Positions 10,178 to 44,988 are shown, counted from the stretch's first letter. The stretch: DNA of 54,437 bases from an uncultured Puniceicoccaceae bacterium (GCA_964533835.1 CAZHQD010000001.1:1-54437), one strand, 5' to 3'. Translations and numbers: made by a program. The notes: generated by a model not told the origin, from the letters alone.

Positions 10178-10277
10178 GGGTGGTGTGGCGTTAAAGCGGG
10201 TTGTAAAAACCGCCAGCAAAGCAGTCAGCCACCCAACTGTCAACGCAAGGTAACTGCTCAATACAACCTTGCCCCAC

Positions 10278-12770: not shown

Positions 12771-14180
12771 TTGAGCACTTCAGCCAAACTTCCTCTGCGA
12801 GTAAAATCTGGCTATGGCGCTGCCGAGACGGGCATCTCTGCTGCAGAGTTTTTGCTGCAAGTAGCTTTACTGGAGTTCTACATCACGGCAGTAGGGTTAA
12901 ATGCGGGATTGGCCGCCTTAGCTCTAGCGATTGGTACGCTATGGGATGGGATCAGCGATCCACTCATGGGCACCATCATTGACCGCACTCGCCTGCGGGC
13001 AGGTAGATTTTTACCATTCATAGCTTTAGGTGGCGTTCTTTTGGCGATTGCTTTGCTGGTAGTTTTTCTGCCTCCGCAGCTGGATTCTCAATTGGCGAAG
13101 TTCGGTTATATGCTAGGTGCATGCCTACTAATCAATACGGCCACTACCATCATTTCGGTTCCGCATCTGGCGCTAGGGGCAGCTCTAAGCCAGGATAGGC
13201 ATGAGCGGACGCACCTGGTGGGGTGGCGGCTTGTCTTTGGCAACTTAGGATTTCTTCTGGGTGTTTTGCTGCCTGTAATCGTAGCAAAATCGCTCATGGC
13301 TGATGTTGAGACTTCGGAGGGCCTTCTCTCTTCGCGTGGCGGAACGGCTGTTGTACTGGCCGCAGTAACTATAATTGGCGCCGCAATTACTTGTTTCGCC
13401 CTTAGAAATCGTCAGCCCAACTATGATGCCATTCCTTCGCAAAGCGGGTTCTGGAAGAATATTTTTAGCCTGTTGCGAAATCACGTTTTCAGGCCTTTGC
13501 TAGCCTCATTCATGCTGATGGGCATCGCGCGCACTATAAACGCGTCGGTTGCGCTTTTCTATTACAAGCTAGCCCTGGATCTTTCAGAAGAGCAGGTATT
13601 TGTTAACGTCCTGGTGGTTTTCATTTTCTCGATTCTTCTCTCTATTCCCTTTTGGGCATGGTTATCACGAAAAATCGGAAAGCGCGGGCCCGCTTTATTT
13701 GGCCTGAGCACGCTGGGTGTGTTGGGCGCGATAGTCTATCTTATTTTCCCTTCTGGTGAGTTGCTTGGGCCGGTTGTCATGGCGGTCATAGGTGGTATTT
13801 TGGTAGGCACCGTCATTCTTTTTGAGTCACTCGTTGCTGATGTTGTGGATTATGACGAACTTAAAACAGGTAGACGGCGCGAAGGCCTTTATTTTGGTTT
13901 TTGGAAAATGGCCACAAAGCTGTCGCGTGCACTGGGGCTTGGCCTTACCGCTCTTCTGCTTTCTTTGATTGGGTTTGAAGAAGGGGCAATCACGCAATCG
14001 GAAGATACCCTTACGGGGCTTCGCTGGATTTTCGGGCCCGGTGTAGGAGGCTTCTTTCTTCTCGCGGCGATTGCGTTTTATCTTATGCCGCTCACGGACT
14101 CGCGTCATGTTCGTGTCCAAGCCCTTCTGAATCGCAGGAAAGAATTTCGCGCTTGGCGTTTAATTAATACGAAATCGTGA
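12771..14180 (+). CDS. MFS transporter, glycoside-pentoside-hexuronide (GPH/MelB)-like
   Basis: 469-aa multi-TM ORF with a TTG start. The frame is closed by TAG at 12732 and no ATG occurs before the conserved N-terminal GYG segment. It also has the DPLMGTIIDRT motif typical of GPH/MFS_2. Confidence 0.7.
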   Translation: MSTSAKLPLRVKSGYGAAETGISAAEFLLQVALLEFYITAVGLNAGLAALALAIGTLWDGISDPLMGTIIDRTRLRAGRFLPFIALGGVLLAIALLVVFLPPQLDSQLAKFGYMLGACLLINTATTIISVPHLALGAALSQDRHERTHLVGWRLVFGNLGFLLGVLLPVIVAKSLMADVETSEGLLSSRGGTAVVLAAVTIIGAAITCFALRNRQPNYDAIPSQSGFWKNIFSLLRNHVFRPLLASFMLMGIARTINASVALFYYKLALDLSEEQVFVNVLVVFIFSILLSIPFWAWLSRKIGKRGPALFGLSTLGVLGAIVYLIFPSGELLGPVVMAVIGGILVGTVILFESLVADVVDYDELKTGRRREGLYFGFWKMATKLSRALGLGLTALLLSLIGFEEGAITQSEDTLTGLRWIFGPGVGGFFLLAAIAFYLMPLTDSRHVRVQALLNRRKEFRAWRLINTKS

Positions 14181-15040
14181 TAGCTTTACCTTATAGCAAT
14201 CACTTCGATTCTAATTTTTTCTTTAATGGTATGATCGCTCTCTTTTTCTACGGGTGGCTAATTATGGTGGCAATCATGGCAGCCCTCTGGCTCTACCAAA
14301 AGCGCTTGGGCGATGCTGGTATCGTGGATGTCGCTTGGTCTTATGGGATAGGAGTACTGGCTCTCTTTTATTTAATTTTTCTACCTGAGATTCCCATTGA
14401 AAGGCGATTGCTTGTTTGTGGAGTGGCTGTTCTTTGGTCCGCGCGACTGGGAACTTATCTTCTATTTAATAGGGTCATTGGTAAGCATGAGGATGGCAGA
14501 TACAAAGAGCTGCGTCGCTCATGGGGCGATCAATTTCAGCGCAAGCTTTTCTGGTTTTATCAGGCTCAGGGCGCAGCGGACAGTCTCCTCACTATACCGA
14601 TTCTCATTGCCCTTGCGGTTCCTGCATCAGGGATCACGATTTTCGATATTGTGGGGGCTTTCATAGTGGTTCTTTCAGTTTCTGGCGAAACACTTGCGGA
14701 TAGCCAGTTGGCAGCATTCCGCGCCGATCCTTCCAATAAGGGTAAAACTTGCCGCAAAGGGTTATGGCGTTTTTCCCGCCATCCTAATTACTTCTTCGAG
14801 TGGTTGCACTGGATGGCCTATCCAATTATGGCGTTGCCACTCATAGCGGCAGGCGGAGTGGCCTTCTGGTTGGCCAGCTTTTCCAGCGCTGTAGTCATTT
14901 TATGGCTTGTGCTGAAAGTTACGGGTATTCCTCCCACCGAAGCGCAAGCCTTGCGCAGCAGGGGCGAAGATTACCGCCGCTACCAGCGTGAAACCAGCGC
15001 TTTCTTCCCTTGGTTTCCTAAAAAGCTCAAAGAAAGCTAA
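14177..15040 (+). CDS. DUF1295-family membrane protein (steroid 5-alpha-reductase/ICMT-like fold)
   Basis: 287-aa multi-TM ORF with SRHPNYFFEWLHWMAY near the C-terminus. The GTG start overlaps the MFS stop (GTGA). An alternative ATG lies at 14231. Confidence 0.7.
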   Translation: MIALPYSNHFDSNFFFNGMIALFFYGWLIMVAIMAALWLYQKRLGDAGIVDVAWSYGIGVLALFYLIFLPEIPIERRLLVCGVAVLWSARLGTYLLFNRVIGKHEDGRYKELRRSWGDQFQRKLFWFYQAQGAADSLLTIPILIALAVPASGITIFDIVGAFIVVLSVSGETLADSQLAAFRADPSNKGKTCRKGLWRFSRHPNYFFEWLHWMAYPIMALPLIAAGGVAFWLASFSSAVVILWLVLKVTGIPPTEAQALRSRGEDYRRYQRETSAFFPWFPKKLKES

Positions 15041-15238
15041 AATCCTGCTGAATCTCAGAAGTAAATCTTGGGTTATGCTATTAGTATCCTAACTAGAAAA
15101 ACAGTAATTGGCGGTTTTGGCCTGAAAATCGCTTTATGGTTGGCACTCGCTGGATTGTGCGTTTTCCTGATGGGGAACTATCAGGCGTTCGGTCCTTCGG
15201 GTATTTAGCGCATAAACCCGCAACCCCTCTATGGCAGC

Positions 15239-16684
15239 ATGGATTTCAATGGCTACGACTCTACAGGCTTCTTTGATGAAATGTGGGACGCAAATGGCAA
15301 AGTGCGTCCTCACTACCGCTCTTTTCTTGAGCGTTTCAATTGCCTGACCAAGGAAGAATTTCATCGCAAGAGAGAAGCGGTCGATCTCGCCTTCCTGCGG
15401 CAGGGAATCACCTTCACTGTTTACAATGATAACCAGGGCACCGAGCGCATCTTTCCGTTCGATCTGATTCCTCGCATTATACCCGCGTCTGAATGGAGCC
15501 ATCTCAAAGCGGGACTCGAACAGCGAATCACTGCGCTCAATCTCTTTCTCCATGACATCTACCACGAACAAAAAATCCTCAAAGATGGGGTTATTCCCAA
15601 GGAGATAATTTTCTCTGCCAAGCACTTTAGGCCAGAGTTTGTGGGTTTTAATGTTCCCAAGAACATCTACATCCATGTTTGCGGAACGGATTTGATTCGC
15701 GATAAAGACGGTACTTACCTCGTTCTTGAAGATAATGGACGCTGCCCTTCAGGTGTTTCCTACCTGTTAGAAAATCGGCAGGCCATGAAGCGAGCCTTCC
15801 CTAATTTCTTCCCCAAAGTTGGTGTGAGGCCTGTCACCGATTACCCGATGGAGTTGCTCAAAGTGCTCAAGCATATCGCCCCCAATGGCAAAGAAGAGCC
15901 CACCGTGGCATTGCTCACTCCAGGTATTTATAATAGCGCCTATTTTGAGCACTGCTTTCTGGCTCGCCAGATGGGTATTGAGATCGTCGAAGGCCAAGAT
16001 CTTATTGTGCGCGACCACAAAATCTACATGCGCACCATCTACGGCCTCAAGCAGGTGGATGTTCTCTATCGGCGTATAGACGACGACTTCCTGGACCCTC
16101 TTGTCTTTAGGCCCGACTCTTTACTCGGTGTACCTGGTATTGTGGATGTCTATCGCTCGGGCAATCTCGGTCTGGCCAATTCAATTGGCACTGGTGTAGC
16201 GGATGACAAGGTAACCTACTACTATGTCCCCGCTATGATCCGCTACTACTTGGATCAAGAGCCTATTCTTCCCAATGTACAAACATGGTTGGCCAGCGAA
16301 GAGAAAGATATCGGCTTCATTCTTGATAATATGGAAAAGCTGGTCGTAAAAGCGGCCAATGAATCTGGCGGCTACGGCATGCTTATTGGCCCTGCTTCCA
16401 CAAAGGCTGAAGTGGATGCTTTCCGCGAGGCGGTGAAGGCCAATCCCCGCAATTATATTGCCCAGACACCGATTTCTCTCTCTCGACACCCCACTTACAT
16501 CACAGGTGATGACACCATTGAGGGCAGGCATATAGACCTCCGTCCCTATATTCTTTACGGCGAAAAAATCAGCATTATCCCCGGCGGTCTTACCCGCGTA
16601 GCTCTCAAGCGTGGCTCTCTCGTGGTCAATTCTTCACAGGGCGGCGGCAGTAAAGATACGTGGGTGCTCGGCGCTGAAGAATAA
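15239..16684 (+). CDS. circularly permuted type-2 ATP-grasp protein
   Basis: 481-aa ORF, paralogous to the N-terminal halves of the 860- and 865-aa fusions ([24 protein letters not shown]; [28 protein letters not shown]). Confidence 0.85.
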
Positions 16685-16725
16685 GCGCGGTTGCCAATTT
16701 TTTTAGCCTCAACCTTTTTTATATT

Positions 16726-17736
16726 ATGCTTTGCAGAGTCGTAGATTCCCTCTTTTGGATGAGCCGCTACATAGAGCGCGCTGAAAACACAGCTCGCTTG
16801 ATGGATGTAAACCTTCAAATGGTTTTGGAAAGCGACCATTCCGGTGGCGAAAATTTCCAGCGTCAGTGGGAAGCCATACTTAGAAGCACGGGAGATCTGG
16901 CCCTTTTTCACAAACATTACGAGACTGCTGATAGCGTGACGGTGATGGAGTTCCTCACCTTCAATCGCAAAAATCCCAGCTCCGTCGTTAGTTGCATTGC
17001 CTCTGCCCGTGAGAATGCTCGCCAAATCCGCGATCAGATTACTTCCGAAATGTGGGAAGTGATTAATCGGCTCCACCTTTTTCTGAAAACCATGACGGTG
17101 GACAAAATGATGGCACAGGGCGCCTCAGATTTTTTTAAGGAGATTCGGGAGTATATTCATCTTTTCCAAGGCATCACTGCCAGCACCTACCCCAGACAAC
17201 TTGGGTATGATTTTATCAGAGCAGGCCAATACTTGGAAAGGGCAGACAAAACGGGGCGTATCCTCGACATAAAATATTGGATTCTTTTGCCGAGCCTCCA
17301 GGATGTGGGAGGCGCGCTGGATGTCGCCCAGTGGGCTGCCCTGCTCAGAGCCTGCAGCGCGCTGGATGCCTATCACTGGAATTTTGTCAGCGAGGTTAAT
17401 CCCAAGAATGTGGCTAGCTTGCTCATTCTTTCTTCCGATTTTCCCAGAAGCATCCGCTTTTGTTTGGAAAAGTTCGACGAGGCCCTCCACCACATTTCTC
17501 ACTGTCCAGCCAGAGAATACAGCAACGATTTAGAGCGTATCAGTGGCAGGCTGCTTTCCGACCTCAACTACACTACGCCTGAAGAAATCATGCGCATCGG
17601 TATCCATGAGTATTTGGAACAGCTTCAGGTGCGTATTGATGAGCTCGGTGTCAAACTGAGTGAGACTTACATGTTCTTCCCCGTTTACGACCCTGCTCTT
17701 GAAGCGGCTAAACAAGTCACCTCACAGAAACAATAA
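16726..17736 (+). CDS. alpha-E domain protein
   Basis: 336-aa ORF starting MLCRVVDSLFWMSRYIERAENTARLMDV. It aligns by eye to the C-terminal halves of the two fusion proteins. Confidence 0.8.
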   Translation: MLCRVVDSLFWMSRYIERAENTARLMDVNLQMVLESDHSGGENFQRQWEAILRSTGDLALFHKHYETADSVTVMEFLTFNRKNPSSVVSCIASARENARQIRDQITSEMWEVINRLHLFLKTMTVDKMMAQGASDFFKEIREYIHLFQGITASTYPRQLGYDFIRAGQYLERADKTGRILDIKYWILLPSLQDVGGALDVAQWAALLRACSALDAYHWNFVSEVNPKNVASLLILSSDFPRSIRFCLEKFDEALHHISHCPAREYSNDLERISGRLLSDLNYTTPEEIMRIGIHEYLEQLQVRIDELGVKLSETYMFFPVYDPALEAAKQVTSQKQ

Positions 17737-17780
17737 GAGTTTTCTGGCCTTCATTTTGTATTATTTTTGCCCATTTATTT

Positions 17781-20700
17781 ATGTCTATCCATGTCGCCCT
17801 AACTCACATCACTCACTACGATTATGACCGTCGGGTGTCTATGTCTCCACAGATCATACGGTTGCGTCCCGCCCCTCATTGTAGAACCAAGGTCATCAGT
17901 TATTCGCAAATCGTTACACCGAAAGAGCACTTCATAAACTGGCAGCAAGACCCCTTCGGTAACTATCTTGCCCGTGTAGTTTTTCCCGAGAAGACCACGT
18001 CCTTTCAAGTTGAGGTTCGCTTGGTCGCGGAAATGGCGGTTTATAACCCATTCGATTTTTTTCTCGAACCTTCTGCCGACAAATTTCCTTTCACTTACGA
18101 AGAATCACTTAAAAAAGAGTTGCAGCCTTACTTGGAGAATTCTTGGTCTTCTCCTCTCTTTGATCGCTTCCTGGATAGCGTGGAAAAAAAGCCCATGCAA
18201 ACAGTGGATTTCTTGGTGGCTTTAAACAATAAAATCAAAGAATCCGTCGGCTACATCATCAGGCTGGAGCCAGGTGTCCAGACCCCCGAGGAAACACTTG
18301 TTAAGGGCACTGGTTCCTGTCGCGATTCCGCTTGGTTGCTTGTAAATATAGCTCGCAGACTTGGCCTGGCTGCGCGTTTCGTTTCCGGCTACTTAATCCA
18401 ACTTACGCCCGACCAAAAGAGCCTGGATGGGCCCTCGGGCACGGAAAAAGATTTCACAGACCTTCACGCTTGGGCAGAGATTTACCTGCCAGGCGCAGGT
18501 TGGATTGGCTTCGATCCGACTTCAGGACTTGTGGCAGGGGAGGGGCACCTGCCTCTTGCGGCTACACCCATGCCTTCAGGCGCAGCTCCGATTACTGGCG
18601 CAGTAGATAAGTGCGAGGTCAGCTTCGCCCACCACATGGAAGTGCGCCGTCAATACGAGTCGCCCAGAGTCACAAAGCCCTATACTGAAGAAGAATGGGC
18701 AGAAATAAATTCCCTCGGTGCGGCGATTGATAACGAGCTTAATGCAAACGACGTTCGCCTAACTATGGGCGGCGAGCCCACTTTTGTTTCCATAGACGAT
18801 ATGGACGGTGCCGAGTGGAATGTGGGAGCCGTTGGTCCGCACAAGCGCAGGCTTTCCGAAATTTTGCTAAGAAGGCTTTTCAAGAAGTATGCCGCTGGGG
18901 GCGTTTTGCACTACGGGCAGGGCAAATGGTATCCGGGCGAGTCACTGCCACGCTGGGCATTCACCGCATACTGGCGAAAAGATGGGCAACCTGTCTGGCG
19001 TAATCCTGAGTTGCTGGGCTCGCTTGAAAAAGAGTACGATTTGGGCACCCAGGATGCTCACGACTTTACCTATGGTTTGGCAGAAACTCTGGGCGTAAAT
19101 ACCGAACACTTAATGCCCGCATACGAGGACGCATGGTATTATCTCTGGAAGGAGCGCAAACTGCCTGTCAATGTGGACCCCCTCGACTCCAAAGTGCGCG
19201 ACGAAGAGGAGCGCGTACGCTTGGCGCGCATTTTTGAAGCGGGCCTGGATACGCCTCGCGGTTTCGTCCTTCCCATTCAGCGTTGGCAAAGTCGCGCATG
19301 GGTAAGCGGACCGTGGCACCTCCGCCAAAACAGGCTTTACCTGATTCCCGGCGATTCTCCCGTCGGCTTGCGCTTGCCCATCGAATCCATCCCGTGGGTG
19401 CGCTCATTGGATTATCCCTATATCAATCAGCCCGATCCCACCCTCAGGCAGTCCGCTTTGGGCAATGTGGATGAAATATACCAGCAGTACTTTTTGCGTG
19501 CCTCACGTTACGCCGAAGAACTCCGCCAGCGCAGGCGCGCAGCTGGAGACTACGGTCCCAACCAACAGGAAATCGCCGAACTCCCCGACAACGCCCGCCA
19601 GCCGAATAAAGGCGAATCCGCAGGCTGGGTGCTTCGCACAGCACTTTGCGTAGAGCCTCGCAATGGCCGCCTCCATGTCTTCCTTCCACCACTTGCCACT
19701 ACGGAAGATTTCCTTGATCTTATCTCAGCTATAGAGGCCACTGCCGAGCGCTTGGGTATGCCCGTTATTCTCGAAGGCGAGATCCCACCCGCAGATCCGC
19801 GCATTGGCAGCTTCAAGCTCACCCCAGACCCTGGTGTTATCGAGGTAAATATCCATCCATCCACCTCATGGGGTGAGTTGGTGGATAAGACCGAAACCTT
19901 GTATGAAGAGGCTCGGCAATCCCGCTTGGGTACCGAGAAATTCATGATTGATGGGCGTCACGTCGGTACTGGTGGCGGCAATCACCTTGTCCTCGGTGCC
20001 GCACATCCCAGCGACAGCCCGTTTTTGCGCAGGCCCGACCTCCTTCGCAGCCTCATTGCCTACTGGAACAATCATCCTTCGCTCTCCTATCTTTTCAGCG
20101 GCTTATTTATCGGTCCTACCAGTCAAGCTCCTCGCGTGGACGAGGCTCGTTTGGACTCTCTCTACGAAATAGAAATCGCTTTCAACGAGATGGATCGGCA
20201 ACTGAATACCTTTGGCAGCTTCCCTCCGTGGCTCGTGGATCGGCTATTCAGAAATCTGCTCACTGATGTCACGGGAAATACCCATCGCGCTGAGTTTTGC
20301 ATAGATAAGCTCTACAGTCCCGATAGCTCAACTGGCAGGCTTGGTCTTTTGGAATTGCGTTCGTTTGAGATGCCTCCCCATTCACGCATGAGTCTGGCCC
20401 AGCAGCTTCTGCTTCGGGGCCTAATATGTCTCTTTTGGAAAAAGCCTTACTACCCAAACCGCTTGGCTCGTTGGGGTAACGACTTACACGACAGATTCCT
20501 CCTTCCGCACTTTGTCTGGCAAGACTTCCGTGATGTCCTGGGTGACTTGCGGGCTGGAGGTTTTCCTTTCAAGGATAGTTGGTTTGCGCCTCACTATGAA
20601 TTTCGTTTCCCCCGCTATGGCGATATTCAGTTCCGTGATGTCCACTTGGAGCTTAGGTGCGCGCTTGAGCCTTGGCTGGTTCTTGGGGAAGAGGGCGCCG

Positions 20701-21167
20701 CCAGTGGCACAGTTCGCTATGTGGATTCCTCCGTGGAGCGTATGCAGGTAAAGGTATCTGGTATGAATGGCGACCGCTATCGGGTCACTGTGGGCGGGCG
20801 CTCTTTGCCACTTGGCAATACTGGCGTCGCTGGTGAATCCGTTTGCGGTCTGCGTTATCGGGCGTGGCAACCGCCCTCCTGTTTGCATCCTACCATGGGT
20901 GTGCATACTCCGCTCGTTTTCAATCTGGTGGATACGTGGAGCCAGCTTTCAGTCGCGGGCTGCACGTATCATGTAGCGCACCCTGGAGGGCGTAATTATG
21001 CCACGTTCCCCGTAAATGCCTACGAGGCAGAGAGTCGGCGTCTCGCCCGTTTTGTCCCCCATGGCTTCACGGAAACAAAAGCCCACCATGTGCCCCCTAT
21101 GGAATTGAATCCCGAGTTCCCATGGACGCTCGACCTGCGTTCACAACCCTTCACGCACCGCCCCTAG
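17781..21167 (+). CDS. large transglutaminase-like protein (Bact_transglu_N + transglutaminase core + long DUF2126-like C-terminal region)
   Basis: 1128-aa ORF. Cys/His/Asp set: GTGSCRDSAWLL..., DLHAWAEIY, GFDPTSG. The C-terminal ~800 aa contain no motif I recognise. Confidence 0.8.
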   Translation: MSIHVALTHITHYDYDRRVSMSPQIIRLRPAPHCRTKVISYSQIVTPKEHFINWQQDPFGNYLARVVFPEKTTSFQVEVRLVAEMAVYNPFDFFLEPSADKFPFTYEESLKKELQPYLENSWSSPLFDRFLDSVEKKPMQTVDFLVALNNKIKESVGYIIRLEPGVQTPEETLVKGTGSCRDSAWLLVNIARRLGLAARFVSGYLIQLTPDQKSLDGPSGTEKDFTDLHAWAEIYLPGAGWIGFDPTSGLVAGEGHLPLAATPMPSGAAPITGAVDKCEVSFAHHMEVRRQYESPRVTKPYTEEEWAEINSLGAAIDNELNANDVRLTMGGEPTFVSIDDMDGAEWNVGAVGPHKRRLSEILLRRLFKKYAAGGVLHYGQGKWYPGESLPRWAFTAYWRKDGQPVWRNPELLGSLEKEYDLGTQDAHDFTYGLAETLGVNTEHLMPAYEDAWYYLWKERKLPVNVDPLDSKVRDEEERVRLARIFEAGLDTPRGFVLPIQRWQSRAWVSGPWHLRQNRLYLIPGDSPVGLRLPIESIPWVRSLDYPYINQPDPTLRQSALGNVDEIYQQYFLRASRYAEELRQRRRAAGDYGPNQQEIAELPDNARQPNKGESAGWVLRTALCVEPRNGRLHVFLPPLATTEDFLDLISAIEATAERLGMPVILEGEIPPADPRIGSFKLTPDPGVIEVNIHPSTSWGELVDKTETLYEEARQSRLGTEKFMIDGRHVGTGGGNHLVLGAAHPSDSPFLRRPDLLRSLIAYWNNHPSLSYLFSGLFIGPTSQAPRVDEARLDSLYEIEIAFNEMDRQLNTFGSFPPWLVDRLFRNLLTDVTGNTHRAEFCIDKLYSPDSSTGRLGLLELRSFEMPPHSRMSLAQQLLLRGLICLFWKKPYYPNRLARWGNDLHDRFLLPHFVWQDFRDVLGDLRAGGFPFKDSWFAPHYEFRFPRYGDIQFRDVHLELRCALEPWLVLGEEGAASGTVRYVDSSVERMQVKVSGMNGDRYRVTVGGRSLPLGNTGVAGESVCGLRYRAWQPPSCLHPTMGVHTPLVFNLVDTWSQLSVAGCTYHVAHPGGRNYATFPVNAYEAESRRLARFVPHGFTETKAHHVPPMELNPEFPWTLDLRSQPFTHRP

Positions 21168-21223
21168 AATCCGTAAACATTAGCGTGCTTCTATTTTAGT
21201 TTTGGGCATACTTGTAGGCATTC

Positions 21224-23821
21224 TTGTTTGTTTCGCCACTCGCTATGCAGCTTACCTTTCAATCCATAGATATGCTCCTTGCAGGCCGCTACCAGCCGCC
21301 CGCAGGGTTTCGTGATGAATTGGTGGATAAAGCTGGAAACATACGCCCTTACTGGCTCCCCATCATTGATAAGATGGCAGGGCTCGGTATTCATGAGCTG
21401 CGCCGAAGAGAGGAGCAGCTCAATCGCATCATTCGTGAGCACGGTGTCACCTTCAATATCTATGGGCAGGCGGATGGAAAAGACCGCCCATGGGTGATGG
21501 ATCTGCTCCCTACTGTTGTTCCCTACGAGGAGTGGAAATGGCTTGAGGAATCCCTGCGCCAGAGGGTCACGCTAATCAATTCCCTCTTGGCGGATATCTA
21601 TGGTGAGCGTCGCCTCCTTAAATCAGGTGCCATACCCCAAGAGCTTCTTTTTGCTAACCCCGAATACCTGCGCCCGTGTGTGGGTTGGTCACCCGTCAAC
21701 GGGCACCACGTCCATATTTATGCCGCTGATTTGGCCCGCTCCCCGGATGGGCACTGGTGGGTTTTAAGCGACCGCCTGGAATCTCCCTCTGGCATGGGCT
21801 ATTCCCATGAAAACCGCTTGCTTACGCGCAGGCTCTTGGGCGATCTATTTCGGACCACTCGGGTGCAGCCATTGCAGCCTTTTTTTGATAAGCTCCAATC
21901 CTCTTTCTCGCACCTTGCTCCGTGGGCCGATGGCGATCCCAAAGTTGTCTACCTTACTCCTGGTCCGGCAAATGAGACCTATTTTGAGCAATCTTATCTT
22001 TCCCGCAATCTTGGTTACCCTATCGTCCAAGGGGCCGACCTAATGGTCTGGAACAACCGCGTCTACCTAAAAACGCTGGGTGGGTCGCAACCTGTTGATG
22101 TCATTATTCGCAGAGTAGATTCGGCCTATTGTGATCCACTCGATTTCAGGGCGGATTCTTTGCTGGGAGTTCCGGGTCTTGTGGAGGCGGCACGTGCGGG
22201 CAATGTGGCGTTGGCCAATGCCTTGGGAACGGGTATCCTTGAGGCAACTGCGTGGCTGGCATTTTACCCGGCTCTTTGCCAAACGGTACTGGGAGAGTCC
22301 CTTAAGATTCCCTCTGTGGCCACTTGGTGGTGTGGCCAGGAGAGCGAGCGTAAATATGTTCTGGAGCACTTGGACGACTTGATAATCAAACCTGCATTTA
22401 GGACGGCTCCTTTCCAGGCGCGCTGGGGCGGAGAATTATCAAAGGAGGACAAGGATGATTTGCGGCAACGCATACTGGCGCAGCCCGCATTTTACTGTGC
22501 TCAGGAGCTAGTCAATAAATCAACAACCCCTGTCTTGGAAGATGCTGGCTTAATCCCGCGCCATTTCCTTACAAGGGTATATCTCGTGCGTGGGCACGAT
22601 GGGTATTTTTTGATGCCTGGTGGCCTGACTCGGATCGCATCCAATAATCACCCGCTTACGGTTTCCATGCAGCGAGGTGGGCAAAGTAAAGATACTTGGA
22701 TTTTGCAACCGCCCACAGCCCGTGTGGACGATCTTCCTCCAATCCCCGGGACTGTCACTATGGCCATTCGGCGTGCTCGCACAGATGTGCCTAGTCGTGT
22801 GGCTGACAATCTCTTCTGGTTTGGTCGTTATCTGGAGCGTTGCGACGCTCAAGCCAGGCTCATTCGAGTATTGATAAATGCGCTCACTGAAGAGAGTGAA
22901 GAGCGTTTGATCGATTTGTTGCCCATGTTTGCCATGCTTCAGGATTGGGATGTTGTCCGAAAGCAAATTAAGAGCAAAACCTTCGATATGGCATTGGCAG
23001 ACAGCGCATTGGGGAAAGGGCTATGGGATGCAGGCTTTGTTTCAAGTGTCACTGCAACCGCAGAGGGCCTGCATCGTTGTGCCTTTGCTATTAAGGATCG
23101 GCTTTCTCTTGACCTCTGGCAGACCCTCACTCGACTTCGCGAAGTCGTGCAGCAAAAGGATTTTGACTCCACGGCTGATTCAAAGAAACACAGCGTGCTG
23201 GAGGACTCCGTATTCGGCCAGCTTAGTGAGACGCTAAATCTCTTGGCTGCCGCCAGTGGCCTTGCCACGGAGAATATGACCCGCGGACAGGGCTGGGTCT
23301 TTCTAGATCTTGGAAGGCGTATCGAGCGTGGCCTTTCGCTTTGTGATCTTTTGCAAACAGGCATGGCTTTTGGGCCACTCAAGTCTGAGAGCCTTTTGCA
23401 AAAATATGTTGTGTGGGCTGATAGTATTTTGACTTACAGGCGCCGTTATCTGGCTGTCGTGCAAATTCTGCCCGCTCTGGATTTGCTCTTGCTAGATCCA
23501 GCCAATCCCCGCGCTCTTTCGTTCCAAACCTCAAGGATTCTTCAACACACTGCGCGTCTGCCCTATGTGCGCACAGAGGGGATATCTCCTCAAGAATTGG
23601 CAGAAGCCATTCATAGCCGGATTGGAGTTACCGATCTCGCTAAGGGCCCCCCCTTGGATACCAAAGTAGGCATGGAATTTGTAAGCAGCTTTTTGGATTT
23701 CGCTGGTGGTCAGTTGCGATTGCTTTCGGAGCGCTTCTCGCAAATTTATTTTGCTCAAGGGGCTGGGGCCATGCCCATGGGTATCCATAATGAGCAACAT
23801 ACTGCTGAGGATGTCGTCTAG
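21224..23821 (+). CDS. circularly permuted ATP-grasp :: alpha-E domain fusion protein
   Basis: 865-aa ORF (TTG start in the track; the first ATG is at 21245). ATP-grasp block VTLINSLLADIYGERRLLKSGAIP and alpha-E box NLFWFGRYLERCDA. Confidence 0.8.
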   Translation: MFVSPLAMQLTFQSIDMLLAGRYQPPAGFRDELVDKAGNIRPYWLPIIDKMAGLGIHELRRREEQLNRIIREHGVTFNIYGQADGKDRPWVMDLLPTVVPYEEWKWLEESLRQRVTLINSLLADIYGERRLLKSGAIPQELLFANPEYLRPCVGWSPVNGHHVHIYAADLARSPDGHWWVLSDRLESPSGMGYSHENRLLTRRLLGDLFRTTRVQPLQPFFDKLQSSFSHLAPWADGDPKVVYLTPGPANETYFEQSYLSRNLGYPIVQGADLMVWNNRVYLKTLGGSQPVDVIIRRVDSAYCDPLDFRADSLLGVPGLVEAARAGNVALANALGTGILEATAWLAFYPALCQTVLGESLKIPSVATWWCGQESERKYVLEHLDDLIIKPAFRTAPFQARWGGELSKEDKDDLRQRILAQPAFYCAQELVNKSTTPVLEDAGLIPRHFLTRVYLVRGHDGYFLMPGGLTRIASNNHPLTVSMQRGGQSKDTWILQPPTARVDDLPPIPGTVTMAIRRARTDVPSRVADNLFWFGRYLERCDAQARLIRVLINALTEESEERLIDLLPMFAMLQDWDVVRKQIKSKTFDMALADSALGKGLWDAGFVSSVTATAEGLHRCAFAIKDRLSLDLWQTLTRLREVVQQKDFDSTADSKKHSVLEDSVFGQLSETLNLLAAASGLATENMTRGQGWVFLDLGRRIERGLSLCDLLQTGMAFGPLKSESLLQKYVVWADSILTYRRRYLAVVQILPALDLLLLDPANPRALSFQTSRILQHTARLPYVRTEGISPQELAEAIHSRIGVTDLAKGPPLDTKVGMEFVSSFLDFAGGQLRLLSERFSQIYFAQGAGAMPMGIHNEQHTAEDVV

Positions 23822-23823
23822 CT

Positions 23824-24705
23824 ATGCCGAGTTACCATGTTTGCCATAACACAATAATCAGCTACGGCGCCCCTGTCTCCGTAGCGTGGCACAGTGCGCA
23901 CCTAAAGCCGCGCGAGTTTGCATGGCAGAAGATTTCCGACTACTCCCTCGTTGTTTCCCCGGATAAAAACCTATTCAGCGAAAAAATCGATTACTTTGGA
24001 AACTGGAGCCAGCGCTTTTCAATCGGAGTTGGGCATTCTGAGCTTAAAATAATCTCTTCTTTCAAAGTCTTAGTAGAAAGGGATGCTCCACTGAATGCAG
24101 AATACCAGTTTAAAGAACTCAAATCCTGGCTTAGGGCACAGGATAGCGGTGCTGCCAATTTCATCGAATTTACTCATCCATCCACGCACGTTGATACGGA
24201 TTCTAGCTTCGGCGCTTTGGCGGCTCCTTTTTTTGAGCCAGACAAACCTCTCATTGAATCATTATCCGAGTTCTGTGTCTTTCTTCATGAAGAGCTTACC
24301 TTCGATCCGGAAGCTACTGATATTTCTACTCCTGTTACCAAGGTCCTGGAGCTCAAACGCGGAGTGTGCCAGGATTTTGCCCACTTGGGCATCGCTTGCC
24401 TGCGCTCTATAGGCATCCCTGCCGCTTATGTAAGCGGGTATTTGCTTACCAATCCTCCTCCCGGGCAGCCTCGTCTTGTCGGAGCAGATGCCTCTCATGC
24501 CTGGCTCGCTGTTCCCTTGCCGAATGGGGATTGGGTAGAGCTTGACCCTACAAATGGTTGCTTGCCTACAGATAGGCATATTGTCTTGGCCAGAGGCAGA
24601 GACTACAGCGATGTCAGCCCGCTCAAGGGCGCAGTGATTGGTGGTGGTTCGCAGGCGGTCAAAGTCGAAGTTACTGTAATGCCTGAGGACGAGATTGCGC
24701 TGTAG
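23824..24705 (+). CDS. transglutaminase-like cysteine peptidase family protein (Bact_transglu_N + core)
   Basis: 293-aa ORF starting 2 nt after the previous stop. Catalytic set: GVCQDFAHLGIACLRSIGIPAAYVSGYL, ASHAWLAV, ELDPTNG. Confidence 0.85.
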   Translation: MPSYHVCHNTIISYGAPVSVAWHSAHLKPREFAWQKISDYSLVVSPDKNLFSEKIDYFGNWSQRFSIGVGHSELKIISSFKVLVERDAPLNAEYQFKELKSWLRAQDSGAANFIEFTHPSTHVDTDSSFGALAAPFFEPDKPLIESLSEFCVFLHEELTFDPEATDISTPVTKVLELKRGVCQDFAHLGIACLRSIGIPAAYVSGYLLTNPPPGQPRLVGADASHAWLAVPLPNGDWVELDPTNGCLPTDRHIVLARGRDYSDVSPLKGAVIGGGSQAVKVEVTVMPEDEIAL

Positions 24706-24891
24706 CAGGGGGCGTTTTTCCCACGTTTTGGTGCGGCTCCTTGATACCGCCAAAAAACAAAGGCTTGCCAAGTGGCTTGCGTTTTGTCGTAGCTGTGCGT
24801 TCCTGTAGGGGTATCTGTTTGAGGGCTCCTTGTCCTTATTAGGTTCCTTTGGGTATTATATAATCATGTATATAAGCGACACTGTGCAGCT

Positions 24892-27423
24892 ATGAAGTCC
24901 CTCATTATCGCCGAAAAACCAAGTGTGGCGCGTGACATCGCAGGCGCCATAGGCCGCCTTAAAAAAACTGAAGATTGGTTCGAGAACGACCAATACATCA
25001 TTTCAAGCGCGGTCGGGCACCTCGTCGAATTGCAGATGCCCGAAGATATTGACGCCAAACTCAAGTTTTGGCGCATGGAGTCCCTGCCCATTATCCCCAA
25101 AAAGTTTGGTCTCAAGCCCATAGACAAAACTAAAGCAAAGTTCCAGGAGCTCAAAAAGCTCCTGCAGCGCGAGGATGTCGGCGAAGTCATTAATGCTTGC
25201 GACGCAGGGCGCGAGGGCGAGTTGATCTTTACTTATATTTACGAGCTTGCTCATTGCAAGAAACCCATTCGGCGTCTTTGGATGCAGAGCATGACTGCCC
25301 AAGGCATCCGTGAAGCATTCAATCGGATGCGTGATGGTGAAGAGCTTCTCCCGCTCCGTGAGGCTGCCCGCTCTCGCTCTGAAGCCGATTGGCTCATCGG
25401 CATCAATGGCACCCGCGCCATTACCACCCGTATGCTAGGCTCCCGCAGGGGCCAGGTTGCCAGTGTAGGGCGTGTGCAGACCCCCACGCTAGCTCTGGTT
25501 GTCGAGCGCGAACGCCAAATCCGCAATTTCATCCCCCGCACTTATTGGCGTCTAGTCGGCGATTTCGAGGTTGCCAACGGCCAGTATCAAGGCGCCTACC
25601 AAAAACCTGGAAAAGGCAAAGCAGACGACCAAGACAAACAGGATCGCATCTGGGAAGAAGCAGAGGCTCGCCGCATCCTTCAGGAGTGCCGCCAATCCAA
25701 AAAGGCGCTTGTCTCGGAGGAAAAGAAGCGCGTTCCTCAGATCGCACCCCGCCTCTACGACCTTACCACTTTGCAACGCGAGGCTAACAATCGCTTCGGG
25801 TTGCCCGCAGAAGCCACTCTCAGGATAGCCCAAGCGCTTTACGAAAAGCACAAGGCCATTACTTATCCCAGAACGGATTCACGCGCCTTGCCCGAGGATT
25901 ACATCCCTACTTGCAAGCAAACGCTTGGCGCTCTGGTCCAGCCTTTTCCTATCGCCCAAAAAGCATTGGATAATGATTGGGTCCGCCCCAACAAGCGAAT
26001 CTTCAATAACAAGGAAGTCAGCGATCACTTTGCCATCATTCCCACGGGCCAAGAGAATTCCAAATTTTCTCCCGACGAGGAAAAGATATACGATATGATT
26101 GCGCGCCGTTTTATTGCGGTATTTTTCCCCAGCGCAGAGTTCGATGAAACCACTCGTCTTACTAAGATCGCCGATCACGCATTCAAGACCACGGGCAAGG
26201 TTCTGGTGAATCCGGGGTGGCTCGATGTCTATGGCCGCACGGGCATGAAAGAAGAAACTTTGCCCGCCCTCAGCCCACAAGATGGCCAGCCTCCCCAAGC
26301 AGATGTAATCAATCTGGACCTTCTTGAAGAGGCCACTAAGCCGCCGCCTCGTTATACCGAAGCAACCCTTCTTTCCGCTATGGAAGGTGCGGGCAAGCTG
26401 GTTGAAGACGAAGAGCTTGCGGCTGCCATGAAAGAAAAAGGTCTCGGCACTCCCGCGACCCGCGCCGCTACGATTGAGGGCCTCATTTATACGCAGTATT
26501 TACAGCGTGATCGCCGTGATCTCATCCCGACTGCCAAGGCAGAAAGCTTGATTGATTTTCTTACTGCCCTCAAGGCCGAGGCTCTTACTAGCCCCGCGCT
26601 CACTGGCGAGTGGGAGCATCGCCTCCGTATGATTGAGAACCGCCAACTCTCCAGGCAGGATTTCATGAAGGGAATCGCTGAAGTAACCAGCGATTTGGTA
26701 AATAACGCCCGCAACTTTAAAGAATCCAGCGAAGACGCCCAGCCTACAGACATTCTCTCGCCAACAGACGGGCAACCGCTCCTCGAAAATTTCCGCTCCT
26801 ATAAGTCTCAGGACGGCCTGGTTACAATCTACAAAAATATTGGCAATCGTTTGCTCGCTCCCGATGAAGTTAAGCAGCTCCTCACTGCTAAGCGTATCGG
26901 TCCTCTTGATGGGTTTCGCTCTAAACTCGGCAAGCCCTATTCGGCCATGCTTGAGCTGGATGCCGATTACAAAGTGAAATTTGTTTTCGACAATTCTGGC
27001 AGGGGCGGTGATTCCTCGGCGGAAGGTGGCGAAGGGCAGGGCGCTCCCTCGAATCTCGATATTTCTACGCTTCGCGTGATTGGCAATTCCCCTATCGACG
27101 GCACCCCTGTCTATGAGACTCCCAGTGCCTACATGTGCGAAAAAGCCATCAAGGGCGATAAAGGAGGCTTTCGTCTTGGTCGCCAAATGCTCGGGAAAAT
27201 TCTGGTTCCCGAAGAAGTGGAGAAATTGCTCAAGGACAAGCGCACGGGCGTCATTGAGGGCTTTAAATCGAAGCGCACAGGTAAATTCTTCTCGGCAATC
27301 CTAACCTTGAAGGAGGGTGGAAAAATCGGGTTTGAGTTTCCTCCGCGTGCCCCAAAAGAGGGGAAAACTACCAAAGGCAAAAAAGGCAAGGTGGTCACTA
27401 ATACCGATGCAGAGGTAAACTAA
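24892..27423 (+). CDS. topB: DNA topoisomerase III (type IA) with two C-terminal topoisomerase repeats and a Lys-rich tail
   Basis: 843-aa ORF. TOPRIM N-terminus MKSLIIAEKPSVARDIA, an ITYPRTDS active-site Tyr block, and two similar ~70-aa C-terminal repeats (…GFRSKLGKPYSAMLELD… / …GFKSKRTGKFFSAILTL…). Confidence 0.9.
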   Translation: MKSLIIAEKPSVARDIAGAIGRLKKTEDWFENDQYIISSAVGHLVELQMPEDIDAKLKFWRMESLPIIPKKFGLKPIDKTKAKFQELKKLLQREDVGEVINACDAGREGELIFTYIYELAHCKKPIRRLWMQSMTAQGIREAFNRMRDGEELLPLREAARSRSEADWLIGINGTRAITTRMLGSRRGQVASVGRVQTPTLALVVERERQIRNFIPRTYWRLVGDFEVANGQYQGAYQKPGKGKADDQDKQDRIWEEAEARRILQECRQSKKALVSEEKKRVPQIAPRLYDLTTLQREANNRFGLPAEATLRIAQALYEKHKAITYPRTDSRALPEDYIPTCKQTLGALVQPFPIAQKALDNDWVRPNKRIFNNKEVSDHFAIIPTGQENSKFSPDEEKIYDMIARRFIAVFFPSAEFDETTRLTKIADHAFKTTGKVLVNPGWLDVYGRTGMKEETLPALSPQDGQPPQADVINLDLLEEATKPPPRYTEATLLSAMEGAGKLVEDEELAAAMKEKGLGTPATRAATIEGLIYTQYLQRDRRDLIPTAKAESLIDFLTALKAEALTSPALTGEWEHRLRMIENRQLSRQDFMKGIAEVTSDLVNNARNFKESSEDAQPTDILSPTDGQPLLENFRSYKSQDGLVTIYKNIGNRLLAPDEVKQLLTAKRIGPLDGFRSKLGKPYSAMLELDADYKVKFVFDNSGRGGDSSAEGGEGQGAPSNLDISTLRVIGNSPIDGTPVYETPSAYMCEKAIKGDKGGFRLGRQMLGKILVPEEVEKLLKDKRTGVIEGFKSKRTGKFFSAILTLKEGGKIGFEFPPRAPKEGKTTKGKKGKVVTNTDAEVN

Positions 27424-29391: not shown

Positions 29392-29919
29392 TTACTCCGC
29401 TGGCAGCCTTTGCCCGGGATCTTCTCCAAGGTAATAAAGCGCCAGGTAGGGCCAGGCCACGGAGCGATATGCCACAAATAGCAGGGCTATTGTGGATACC
29501 GCATAGTCTTGGGTCATTCTCCCAAGCGTTGCGTACCCTATTTGCTCATACCCATTTGCAAGAGCCCATGTCCCTAAAAACAGGATGGTGTTCGCGAACA
29601 GCGCCAAGAAAATCACATGCTGTGGTTTCTCCCTGCGCAGCCTCATGGCCCAAAGGCGCATCCCAAGAAAAACCAATAAAAAAAGCAACGCCTGCTGCCC
29701 AAATTCTACTGGCCTTACCGATCCAACCAAAAACCCCATCAGTAAAGCCATGGTTGCCCCTTCTCCAAGCCGCAGGTACAGTGCGGGAAAGAGCAAGAAA
29801 ACCGTATCTAAAAACAAATGGATGGAGCCAAAGCTCACCAGCGAATTTACGGATCGCAAAATTATCCAGAGCGCCCCGTAGAGCACAATCAAGATGCTGA
29901 TGCGGGTAGTGATGGTCAT
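29392..29919 (-). CDS. mreD: rod shape-determining protein MreD (by position and topology)
   Basis: 175-aa polytopic membrane ORF whose ATG overlaps the mreC stop by 1 nt (TAATG). It is the third gene after mreB-mreC. Confidence 0.65.
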   Translation of the reverse strand: MTITTRISILIVLYGALWIILRSVNSLVSFGSIHLFLDTVFLLFPALYLRLGEGATMALLMGFLVGSVRPVEFGQQALLFLLVFLGMRLWAMRLRREKPQHVIFLALFANTILFLGTWALANGYEQIGYATLGRMTQDYAVSTIALLFVAYRSVAWPYLALYYLGEDPGQRLPAE

Positions 29920-44908: not shown

Positions 44909-44988
44909 TGAGCTTGCGCTATGCTATTTTTCCTGCTTTAAGCTTACGGTTGCTTGCAGTGTAACCCTTTATCCGCCAATTTCCCCCT

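Follow-up and report, generated by a model that had tools for sequence, protein, structure and literature searches.

The locus at positions 15239 to 24705 raises the question of whether five closely spaced genes form one unit, and of what chemistry they would carry out together. The window, meaning the whole stretch of DNA that was analysed, covers 54,437 nt from an uncultured Puniceicoccaceae bacterium, and all five genes lie on its + strand. Gene 1 (15239..16684, 481 aa) encodes a circularly permuted (CP) ATP-grasp ligase, and gene 2 (16726..17736, 336 aa) the Alpha-E protein that is its partner. The whole gene 3 ORF (17781-21167, 1128 aa) has two parts, a transglutaminase-like papain-fold domain (17781..18605, residues 1-275) and a DUF2126 region annotated as a putative carboxylate-amine (glutamine-synthetase-like) ligase (18606..21167, residues 276-1128). 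Gene 4 (21245..23821, 858 aa from ATG) is an ATP-grasp::Alpha-E fusion, and gene 5 (23824..24705, 293 aa) a stand-alone transglutaminase-like papain-fold protein. The ORF listing agreed with the original prediction of five co-directional ORFs, including their coordinates and the mechanical gaps of 41, 44, 56 and 2 nt, and a Pfam profile search recovered every domain that had been named, with E-values from 1e-18 to 0 over the five proteins. The 865 aa and 56-nt gap first given for gene 4 hold for the mechanical ORF from TTG 21224. The true start is probably ATG 21245, because this is where alignment with a relative of 87% identity (L082) places it, and the protein would then have 858 aa and follow gene 3 after 77 nt.

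The five genes at 15239-24705 are a real operon. Their clustering is not due to chance, because all five, with the order kept, recur in relatives of 87% and 71% identity that have different flanks, and because the same five-gene order was also found in 10 of 49 distant loci, across five phyla. In L082 synteny stops exactly at the gene 1 leader and the five genes remain together. In L081 both flanks are unlike those of the window and the five genes are nonetheless together, the equivalents of genes 4 and 5 overlapping by 4 nt. A scan from gene 1 to gene 5 found that promoter- and terminator-like sites were not enriched within the operon. Expression most likely comes from a single promoter upstream of gene 1, so that the five genes would be co-transcribed. 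The neighbours of the operon in the window are housekeeping genes (SerRS, topoisomerase, Lnt and MreBCD).

Gene 1 matched CP_ATPgrasp_2 (1.5e-163) and, over its full length, the structural-genomics entry 3n6x (E 1.1e-176); 36 residues were invariant in 84 homologous segments. Gene 2, which begins 41 nt 3' of gene 1, matched Alpha-E (6.9e-97), and its ER motifs (R14/E17/R18 and E171/R172) were invariant in 42/42 homologues; a structure-database search found no solved structure for it. Gene 4 combines both families (CP_ATPgrasp_2 at 3.3e-144 and Alpha-E at 1.4e-55). It also matched 3n6x (E 1.3e-94), and its ER motifs, R535/E538/R539 and R698/E701/R702, were kept in 45-46/46 homologues. The paralogy claimed earlier between the split pair and the fusion was upheld, with 35% identity between gene 1 and the N-terminal half of gene 4 (470 aa, E 5e-107) and 22% between gene 2 and the C-terminal half (184 aa, E 3e-9). 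The two ATP-grasp copies share an invariant set that includes R96/R114, D106/D124, E237/E255, D254/D272, R278/R296, D286/D304 and N314/N332 (gene 1/gene 4), among others. A homologue of this ATP-grasp family from Yersinia released phosphate from ATP in vitro (PMC6376114). A third ATP-grasp::alpha-E fusion may exist 12 kb from the operon.

Gene 3 has the Pfam architecture Bact_transglu_N, Transglut_core and DUF2126, and gene 5 has Transglut_core and Bact_transglu_N. The full Cys/His/Asp sets described for both proteins stood up to alignment. The gene 3 triad (C180/H229/D245) was invariant in 80/80 homologous segments; in gene 5, C182 and H225 were kept in 128/128 and D241 in 124/128. The two triads align with each other, and the proteins share 26% identity over 287 aa (E 5e-16). 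Both also matched 3isr, the N-terminal domain of gene 3 with a Foldseek E-value of 1.8e-12 and gene 5 with an E-value of 6e-11. Gene 3 is strongly conserved: identity between phyla is ~60%, 335 residues do not vary among 80 sequences, and at least 598 species-level relatives exist at about this identity.

The C-terminal part of gene 3, described in the original prediction as an uncharacterised region of ~800 aa, is a named Pfam family of ~850 aa. DUF2126 was matched with 1319 bits over residues 276-1120, covering profile positions 1-826 of 826. Pfam describes the family as a 'putative amidoligase', and Iyer et al. 2008 placed DUF2126, in the Rv2566 architecture, in the carboxylate-amine ligase superfamily (PMC2588565). 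One AlphaFold model of the region had a pLDDT of 72 and a pTM of 0.78. For two models (pLDDT 70-72), the top Foldseek matches were almost all YbdK/GCS2 proteins, glutamine synthetases and gamma-glutamylmethylamide synthetase (GmaS), with E-values of only 0.01-1 and TM scores of 0.25-0.34; for the model with a pLDDT of 72 the E-values were 0.05-1. Sequence-profile comparisons of DUF2126 with glutamine synthetase (GS) and YbdK gave no detectable similarity. DUF2126 is a putative third ligase of the operon, with a possible glutamine-synthetase/YbdK-type fold to which the model matches point weakly. Counting it as a candidate, the operon would have three ligase modules, so the 'two ligase and two peptidase modules' of the original prediction were an undercount.

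Gene order was compared in a census of 49 loci with usable flanks, using a 10-kb vicinity criterion. The most conserved core was the gene 3-4-5 triad, contiguous in 34/49 loci. All five gene types lay within 10 kb of each other in 18/49, in several phyla and in more than one order; Thauera, for example, has 3-4-5-1-2. Genes 3-4-5 occurred without genes 1-2 within 10 kb in 16/49 loci, and gene 3 occurred alone in 8/49. The arrangement is not an unusual one; it recurs in Verrucomicrobiota, Planctomycetota, Acidobacteriota, Desulfobacterota and Betaproteobacteria. The term 'duplicated arrangement' was misleading. Judged by sequence comparison, the cluster consists of two ancient modules (A, genes 1-2; B, genes 3-5) and not of a local duplication, because the copies are only 22-35% identical and the modules are also found separately or reordered.

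The cluster is self-contained and widespread, with variable flanking genes. The 114 nearest flanking ORFs of 80 related loci matched 148 Pfam families, none of them in more than 4 loci. No proteasome domain was found among these ORFs, nor was an Anbu or proteasome domain found among the long (at least 150 aa), non-overlapped ORFs of the window, in line with the reported absence of Anbu. Neither the window nor the related loci had an AAA+ unfoldase gene flanking the cluster, and the 114 flanking ORFs included no conserved transporter, tailoring or resistance gene adjoining it. No conserved small tag ORF was present in or beside the cluster: the leader frames are broken by indels, and the intergenic gaps are at most 77 nt. 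PADLOC anti-phage defence models gave zero matches for the five proteins.

Upstream of gene 1, TGGCCTGAAAATCGC (15118..15132, + strand, 121 nt 5' of the gene 1 ATG) is a lead, a candidate sigma-54 (-24/-12) promoter of the operon. It agrees with TGGCAC-N5-TTGC at 7/10 positions, with GG and GC correctly spaced. This block is the best-conserved part of the leader in the window, L082 and L081, and the L081 version scores 8/10. A window scan allowing at most 2 mismatches found sigma-54 sites no more often than expected by chance, and none upstream of gene 1. Across the wider family, sigma-54-type elements scoring at least 9/10 were present upstream of gene 1 orthologues in 17/36 loci and upstream of first-position gene 3 in 14/60, versus 4/388 control upstream regions (Fisher p 5e-17 and 3e-10, respectively, from loci that share kinship, such as six from Thauera, and are not independent). 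Thauera has a separate sigma-54-type promoter for gene 1, located downstream of gene 5. The leader also holds an inverted repeat, CCTGAT-N8-ATCAGG (15166..15185, + strand), which may be an RNA hairpin or a protein-binding site. It is kept in L082 and not in L081. In the predicted fold of the leader, which has a z-score of only -1.88, the repeat makes up the central hairpin; the leader had no Rfam match.

The enrichment of sigma-54-type promoters upstream of these clusters is new here and fits the published induction under nitrogen limitation. The Pseudomonas putida homologues PP_2685/PP_2688 were 16-22-fold up on nitrate versus ammonium (PMC8050072), Anbu increases under nitrogen limitation (PMC5666114), a Bradyrhizobium CP_ATPgrasp gene is preceded by a predicted RpoN site (PMC13207237), and in marine metagenomes these domains co-vary with urea-metabolism domains (PMC3597751). 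The cluster is probably induced by nitrogen shortage in a sigma-54-dependent manner, and such control would extend to the present organism. This lead was missing from the original prediction. Within the 54-kb window, no rpoN gene or bona fide enhancer-binding protein was visible, and two response regulators at 43610-46320 were without GAFTGA and Walker A motifs.

With moderate confidence, we read the locus as a self-contained, probably cytosolic five-gene operon that unites two ancient modules, linked in function, of a single enzyme system. Module A would be the split pair of circularly permuted ATP-grasp ligase (gene 1) and Alpha-E partner (gene 2), and module B an Rv2566-type triad made up of the transglutaminase (TGase)-DUF2126 protein (gene 3), the ATP-grasp::Alpha-E fusion (gene 4) and the other transglutaminase-like protein (gene 5). 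All three ligase units would use ATP to activate a carboxylate as an acyl phosphate, and reaction with an amine would then give a peptide, amide or gamma-glutamyl bond. Amide bonds would be the target of the two papain-fold units: a thioester would form on the conserved cysteine, and the reaction would end either in hydrolysis (as a peptidase or deamidase, freeing an amine or ammonia) or in acyl transfer. The substrate may be a conserved small molecule or a common cellular one, in nitrogen or amide metabolism. Such a substrate is favoured because gene 3 is strongly conserved, the genomic contexts are those of the core genome, and the cluster is without a tag, transporter or tailoring gene; the same three points speak against a defence system and against a natural product that diversifies. 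In pull-downs, the recombinant Anbu-operon proteins formed no stable complexes (PMC6376114).

The 'two-step peptide-tagging' pathway put forward at first received no specific support, as there is no small tag ORF or proteasome-like gene in or next to the cluster. In its general form, this explanation is that the ligases couple side chains of target proteins with an amino acid or a short peptide, in the manner of Pup or ubiquitin, and that the transglutaminase-like proteins remove or process the tag, with turnover by Anbu where it is present. We consider it unlikely. It has already been proposed for Anbu operons (PMC5666114, PMC6376114), the Pup ligase PafA uses a GS-like ligase fold (PMC2588565), and induction by nitrogen limitation is compatible with more protein turnover. 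Against this stand the broken leader frames and short gaps, which provide no conserved small ORF, and the lack of a proteasome or Anbu gene in the long ORFs of the window and the 114 flanking ORFs. Furthermore, Iyer et al. saw no Pup-like ORFs beside the Rv2566 family (PMC2588565), and no stable interactions were detected between Anbu and the other operon proteins (PMC6376114).

A quite unlikely explanation is that the Cys-His-Asp units are glutaminase or amidase subunits that feed ammonia or an acyl group to a paired ligase, so that a carboxylate is amidated or amide nitrogen is scavenged when ammonia is scarce. The parallel would be carbamoyl-phosphate synthetase, which triad glutaminase subunits serve in this manner. 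To our knowledge, no papain-fold glutaminase subunit of any amidotransferase is known, and this counts against the proposal, which is purely inferential and has to accommodate three ligases with only two thiol units in the window. The strict pairing of thiol amidase and ligase agrees with it (fused in gene 3, adjacent or overlapping as genes 4-5, and in the trio of Anbu operons), as does conservation of gene 3 at a level typical of core metabolic enzymes. It is also compatible with sigma-54 and nitrogen-limitation regulation, and a transglutaminase as ammonia generator is a published idea (PMC6376114).

It is improbable that genes 1-2 and genes 3-5 serve separate processes and owe their adjacency to chance or to nothing more than common regulation. 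The 16 loci with the triad apart from genes 1-2, the 8 with gene 3 alone, and the separate promoter of Thauera gene 1 agree with such independence. In 18/49 loci, from several phyla and in more than one order, the two modules are nevertheless no more than 10 kb apart. Moreover, genes 1-2 of the window and its relatives have no transglutaminase gene of their own and lie 44 nt upstream of gene 3, which starts with that domain.

A gene cluster that makes a non-ribosomal small peptide or another secondary metabolite and uses the peptidases for maturation is most improbable: other pathways do make small peptides with ATP-grasp and GS-like ligases, Iyer et al. 2008 speak of peptide-formation reactions (PMC2588565), and the title of the 2009 paper by Iyer and co-workers suggests 'synthesis of novel metabolites', but conserved transporter, tailoring and resistance genes are absent nearby, the neighbours in the window are housekeeping genes, and a natural-product pathway that diversifies does not resemble gene 3, with its ~60% identity over at least 5 phyla and its presence in at least 598 species.

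The single enzyme system that we favour can be compared with known systems at several levels. Two structures are direct homologues and inform on fold, not mechanism: 3n6x, a structural-genomics 'putative glutathionylspermidine synthase', for gene 1 and the N-terminal half of gene 4, and 3isr, a putative cysteine protease of Cytophaga hutchinsonii, for gene 5 and the N-terminus of gene 3. Members of the GS/GCS2 superfamily (glutamine synthetase, YbdK, gamma-glutamylmethylamide synthetase and the Pup ligase PafA) are the predominant PDB folds matched, with weak scores, by the DUF2126 model, and the shared chemistry would be ATP-dependent ligation of a (gamma-)carboxylate with an amine. DUF2126 differs from them in its roughly twofold size, in its fusion to a papain-fold domain and in the lack of detectable sequence similarity. 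A search of the open-access literature found no functional paper giving a substrate or product for the cluster, as the original prediction had said.

That prediction had also linked the locus to the system delineated by Iyer, Aravind and co-workers and to the Anbu neighbourhood of other bacteria, and the literature agrees: the ATP-grasp/alpha-E/TGase trio is associated with Anbu elsewhere (PMC5666114, PMC6376114, PMC3235984). The core of the Anbu operon is CP ATP-grasp (COG2308), Alpha-E (COG2307), transglutaminase-like (COG1305) and Anbu; it was described by Valas & Bourne 2008 and Iyer et al. 2009 and studied in Yersinia bercovieri, Pseudomonas aeruginosa and P. putida (PP_2685-2688). According to the literature, the Anbu gene is frequent in the operon and not universal, and the remaining genes also occur in Anbu-less genomes. 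The locus has the components of this system, namely a CP ATP-grasp, an adjacent or fused Alpha-E with ER motifs, and a transglutaminase-like protein with an intact Cys-His-Asp set. Genes 1 and 2 match its first two families, also in their order, and the domain that comes next (the gene 3 N-terminus) is again transglutaminase-like; sigma-54 and nitrogen-limitation control is probably common to both. The window differs in having no Anbu gene, in the fusion of the transglutaminase-like unit after gene 2 to the 850-aa DUF2126 where that of the Anbu operon stands alone, and in a second complete ligase/peptidase set downstream.

The locus resembles the Rv2566-type cluster of Mycobacterium tuberculosis, and gene 3 has the Rv2566 architecture of PMC2588565. 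The transglutaminase domain is fused to a full-length DUF2126, and the fusion gene 4 and a second transglutaminase-like gene adjoin it. We take Rv2567 to be an ATP-grasp::Alpha-E fusion and Rv2569c a transglutaminase-like relative of gene 5. In a test for one ligase activity, Rv2411c and Rv2567 were negative (bioRxiv 10.64898/2026.04.15.718621). Rv2569c has been described as a cell-wall-associated extracellular 'serine protease', insensitive to cysteine-protease inhibitors (PMC11081392), which is at odds with a cytosolic thiol amidase. Unlike the Rv2566-type cluster, the window adds the split gene 1-2 module upstream, and the five-gene cluster is a member of a widespread, already described type that was first reported about 2008-2009.

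Five co-directional ORFs on the + strand were recovered at positions 15239-24705 with the coordinates and spacing of the original prediction, the ORF list giving intergenic gaps of 41, 44, 56 and 2 nt. Pfam profile searches agreed with the predicted domains of all five proteins, with very strong scores throughout: CP_ATPgrasp_2/1 in gene 1 (15239-16684, 481 aa), Alpha-E in gene 2 (16726-17736, 336 aa), Bact_transglu_N, Transglut_core and DUF2126 in gene 3 (17781-21167, 1128 aa), CP_ATPgrasp and Alpha-E in gene 4 (21224-23821, 865 aa from a TTG start), and Bact_transglu_N and Transglut_core in gene 5 (23824-24705, 293 aa). No NCBIfam model matched any of the five. The C-terminal region of gene 3 is large, as predicted, but it is not uncharacterised in the sense intended, being a full-length match to DUF2126, which Pfam describes as a putative amidoligase. 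Alignment with L082, a related locus with 87% identity, indicates that gene 4 most likely starts at the ATG at 21245 (MQLTFQS..., 858 aa), which would leave a gap of 77 nt after gene 3.

The predicted paralogy of the split pair and the fusion was borne out by pairwise alignments, in which gene 1 was 35% identical to the N-terminal half of gene 4 (E = 5e-107) and gene 2 was 22% identical to its C-terminal half (E = 3e-9). Gene 5 was 26% identical to the N-terminus of gene 3 (E = 5e-16). The Cys/His/Asp residues assigned in these two transglutaminase-like proteins align mutually, C180/H229/D245 of gene 3 with C182/H225/D241 of gene 5, and are kept in 80 of 80 and 124-128 of 128 homologous segments, respectively. 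Gene 3 is strikingly conserved: identity between phyla is about 60%, compared with 33-45% for genes 2, 4 and 5, and 335 of its residues do not vary among 80 sequences.

A third CP ATP-grasp::Alpha-E fusion (289-2871, -, 860 aa) is encoded on the opposite strand, some 12 kb away from the operon, and is 28% identical to gene 4 (E = 6e-81). It has no adjoining transglutaminase-like gene, and no orthologue was present in 83 related loci. It lies directly downstream of an M42 glutamyl-aminopeptidase-like gene (2938-3996, -) and is followed by a truncated gene (1-224, -) whose product resembles cysteinyl-tRNA synthetase by eye only.

Iyer et al. placed the DUF2126 region in the carboxylate-amine ligase superfamily (PMC2588565), and structure models were used to test this assignment. 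The AlphaFold2 model of full-length gene 3 (pLDDT 69.8, pTM 0.68) matched the cysteine-protease-like structure 3isr through its N-domain (E = 1.8e-12) and a series of glutamine synthetases at E values of 0.01-0.1. The model of DUF2126 alone (pLDDT 72.4, pTM 0.78) had YbdK (GCS2) as its top match, followed by glutamine synthetases and gamma-glutamylmethylamide synthetase (E = 0.05-1). Because these matches fall consistently within one superfamily but are each statistically weak, and sequence-profile searches linked DUF2126 neither with a solved structure nor with any GCS2 protein, the region is regarded as a likely glutamine synthetase (GS)-like ligase. Many DUF2126 relatives (P0124, P0137, P0139, P0156 and others) are only about 700-830 aa long and match best over no more than the C-terminal ~500 residues of the window region; they may represent a shorter architecture within the family, or incomplete gene predictions.

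The window comes from the core chromosome of a Verrucomicrobiota-like bacterium; among the matches listed, its best database relatives were Verrucomicrobiota and Opitutaceae MAGs (64-87% identity). The neighbours of the operon are housekeeping genes, with seryl-tRNA synthetase, a lysine-aminomutase-like radical SAM enzyme, an SDR, an MFS transporter and DUF1295 upstream, and type IA topoisomerase, Lnt, MreC and MreB downstream. In L082 the five genes and the downstream genes are as in the window, while the upstream genes differ, and similarity starts about 140 nt before the start of gene 1. L081, a related locus with 71% identity, has the identical five-gene order with 4-nt overlaps at genes 3/4 and 4/5, and both of its flanks are unrelated to those of the window. 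The five genes and a leader of ~140 nt are therefore inherited together as a unit. Co-transcription and translational coupling of genes 1-5 are predicted from the short gaps and the overlaps.

Several other features of the surrounding DNA were recorded. The seryl-tRNA synthetase ORF (8912-10396, -, GTG start) overlaps the upstream radical-SAM ORF (10278-11465, -) by about 120 nt, and its true start is probably further downstream, because the Pfam N-terminal domain starts only at residue 74. LpxC and a FabA/FabZ-like dehydratase domain are fused in a single ORF (38401-39771, -). Four ORFs had no Pfam match at the thresholds used: 34851-38327 (+, 1158 aa), 31965-33920 (-, 651 aa), 43076-43591 (+, 171 aa) and 29392-29919 (-, 175 aa), the last of which is beside mreC at the expected mreD position.

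Published data connect relatives of these genes with nitrogen supply. PP_2685 and PP_2688 of P. putida are induced on nitrate versus ammonium (log2 4.4 and 4.0; PMC8050072), Anbu, a proteasome homologue encoded in some such operons, is raised in nitrogen-limited cultures (PMC5666114), a Bradyrhizobium CP_ATPgrasp gene is preceded by a predicted RpoN site (PMC13207237), and in marine metagenomes the ATP-grasp/Anbu operon domains show covariation with those of urea metabolism (PMC3597751). We scanned 200 nt of upstream sequence for TGGCAC-N5-TTGC, with GG and GC obligatory and a match defined as at least 9 of 10 positions. Matches preceded the gene 1 orthologue in 17 of 36 loci (Fisher p = 5e-17) and gene 3 as first gene in 14 of 60 (p = 3e-10), with p-values that are overstated because the loci are not independent (several are from Thauera). 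The same pattern occurred in 0.66% of random 200-nt windows and upstream of 4 of 388 other genes in the same loci (1.0%), so that the enrichment is large despite the non-independence. With it, the connection to nitrogen limitation, previously drawn for a few proteobacteria, covers several phyla, and experimenters are pointed to the growth condition to use.

The window leader contains a weaker sigma-54-type match (7/10), TGGCCTGAAAATCGC at 15118-15132, which is the best-conserved block in a three-way leader alignment of the window, L082 and L081 and is a candidate sigma-54 promoter. This element emerged from the comparative alignment only; at two or fewer mismatches the pattern was absent from the gene 1 leader and gave 64 matches in the whole window versus 69 expected. 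An inverted repeat in the same leader (CCTGAT-N8-ATCAGG, 15166-15185, +), kept in L082 and absent from L081, could be an RNA hairpin or an operator bound by a regulator. The leader RNA fold was marginal (z-score -1.88), and Rfam searches of the window at gathering thresholds gave no RNA family, with nothing but one chance-level match in the leader at E ≤ 10. No tRNA genes were found in the window. Two 46-aa leader ORFs, at 15068 and 15136, were considered as small tags and rejected, because neither reading frame survives the indels that separate the window from L082. Consensus scans for sigma-70 promoters and terminators over 14000-25500 were uninformative on internal signals, since counts were at or below shuffle expectation.

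Tandem response regulators (43610-44908 and 44989-46320, +) precede a PilB/T2SSE-type ATPase gene (46412-48175, +) and carry a receiver and a sigma-54-activator-like AAA+ domain. They were rejected as sigma-54 activators because these AAA+ domains are degenerate, GAFTGA and Walker A motifs being absent from both proteins.

ATP-grasp and GS-type enzymes form acyl phosphates that are then ligated to amines, and transglutaminase-like enzymes of the papain fold act on amide substrates through a thioester intermediate. The operon encodes three ligase-type and two papain-fold domains with conserved active-site residues intact, and phosphate release from ATP is known for a gene 1 homologue of Yersinia (PMC6376114). 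The reading we favor, to which we give about an even chance, is that the operon, as one element of the nitrogen-shortage response, would make and cleave (or transfer) bonds of the amide, gamma-glutamyl or peptide type on a conserved cytosolic substrate. The ligases and transglutaminase-like proteins could instead carry out protein tagging, which we consider unlikely, as there is neither a tag gene nor a proteasome partner. The operon indeed lacks Anbu, as originally stated, and so does the adjoining DNA of related loci, where no Pfam proteasome/Anbu domain was present among the 114 nearest flanking ORFs of 80 loci. Also doubtful, and rated no better than tagging, is an amidotransferase-like machine under sigma-54 control, made of paired papain-fold and ligase units, for amide-nitrogen transfer or scavenging. 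Its transglutaminase-like domains would remove amide nitrogen (or acyl groups) from donors, either glutamine-type or peptides, and pass the removed group on to three different ATP-dependent ligases, the two ATP-grasp/Alpha-E units and the GS-like unit. If true, this would be a nitrogen-starvation pathway distinct from GS-GOGAT and a previously unrecognized kind of machine, and would provide a function for a cluster that hundreds of bacterial species carry, M. tuberculosis and Pseudomonas among them.

Gene 3 was encoded by at least 598 species in a species-level genome scan, and its protein had at least 8000 clusters in the protein database; when only the DUF2126 part was searched exhaustively with HMMER, 6444 representative clusters matched at E ≤ 0.001, 1939 of them at E ≤ 1e-30. 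All five window proteins were mapped onto the best 80 loci, and arrangements were counted in the 49 with enough flanking DNA. Genes 3-4-5 were contiguous in 34 of the 49, all five gene types lay within 10 kb in 18, and the window order 1-2-3-4-5 was kept in 10. This order was found in Verrucomicrobiota, Planctomycetota, Acidobacteriota, Desulfobacterota and Burkholderia; the Thauera order is 3-4-5-1-2, and some loci have an additional transglutaminase-like gene next to the gene 1-2 pair. The window pair lacks a transglutaminase gene of this sort and ends 44 nt before gene 3, whose N-terminus is that domain.

The arrangement had been predicted to be a duplicated one. With paralogues only 22-35% identical, a recent tandem duplication was rejected, and with several gene orders among the loci the operon is not a local duplication but a recurrent juxtaposition of two old modules. 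Module A is the split ATP-grasp and Alpha-E pair, the core of the "Anbu operon" (PMC3235984, PMC5666114, PMC6376114), and module B is the triad headed by the transglutaminase-DUF2126 protein, with M. tuberculosis Rv2566 as prototype (PMC2588565). That genes 1-2 and genes 3-5 are two unrelated neighboring units seems distinctly improbable, all five types lying within 10 kb in 18 loci. The nearest flanking ORFs carried 148 Pfam families, each confined to 4 loci or fewer, and because the flanks are so heterogeneous the system is self-contained. A natural-product gene cluster is more improbable still, given absent accessory genes and very high conservation, and a defense system was discarded because PADLOC gave no matches.

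A Peptidase_Mx putative zinc metallopeptidase with Zn_ribbon_DZR_6 flanks the cluster in 3 related loci, the only plausibly related recurring neighbor among the nearest flanking ORFs. Gene 3 was alone in 8 of the 49 loci (L001, L003 and six others, two being among the closest at 64% identity), the surrounding 10 kb having no gene for an ATP-grasp, an Alpha-E or a further transglutaminase-like protein, and because of such loci the DUF2126 protein may be able to work without adjacent partners. The sigma-54-like motifs in stand-alone leaders reached only 7/10 (L001) and 8/10 (L003).

Relatives are routinely annotated as "transglutaminase family protein" or "DUF2126 domain-containing protein", although a homologue on a Burkholderia chromid carried no annotation in PLSDB. 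A literature search found no functional study of DUF2126 proteins, these Pfam/COG families or Anbu after 2018. We take Rv2569c to be a probable relative of gene 5. It was reported as a cell-wall protease blocked by serine-protease inhibitors and not by E-64 or NEM (PMC11081392), which fits poorly with a conserved Cys-His-Asp triad, and this activity was not transferred to gene 5. M. tuberculosis Rv2411c and Rv2567 made no GABA-trehalose (bioRxiv 10.64898/2026.04.15.718621), and one candidate activity is therefore removed.

Because systems of this kind have been published since 2008-2009 and are routinely annotated, the locus is a further copy of a known, functionally unsolved kind, and the window adds no new kind of system. 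The interest is in the functional question of the whole kind rather than in any oddity of this copy: ATP-grasp/Alpha-E/transglutaminase and Rv2566-type DUF2126 clusters are very widespread and conserved, and occur in pathogens (M. tuberculosis, Burkholderia, Ralstonia) and plant-associated bacteria. The window holds the entire toolkit, three ligases and two thiol enzymes, in one compact operon without Anbu, which therefore offers a convenient single construct for heterologous expression. Compared with the Rv2566-type family, the operon is alike in architecture and neighborhood, with the GS fold only weakly supported; compared with the Iyer/Aravind ATP-grasp/Alpha-E/transglutaminase system, and leaving aside the optional Anbu gene, it has all of the features that can be tested in sequence.
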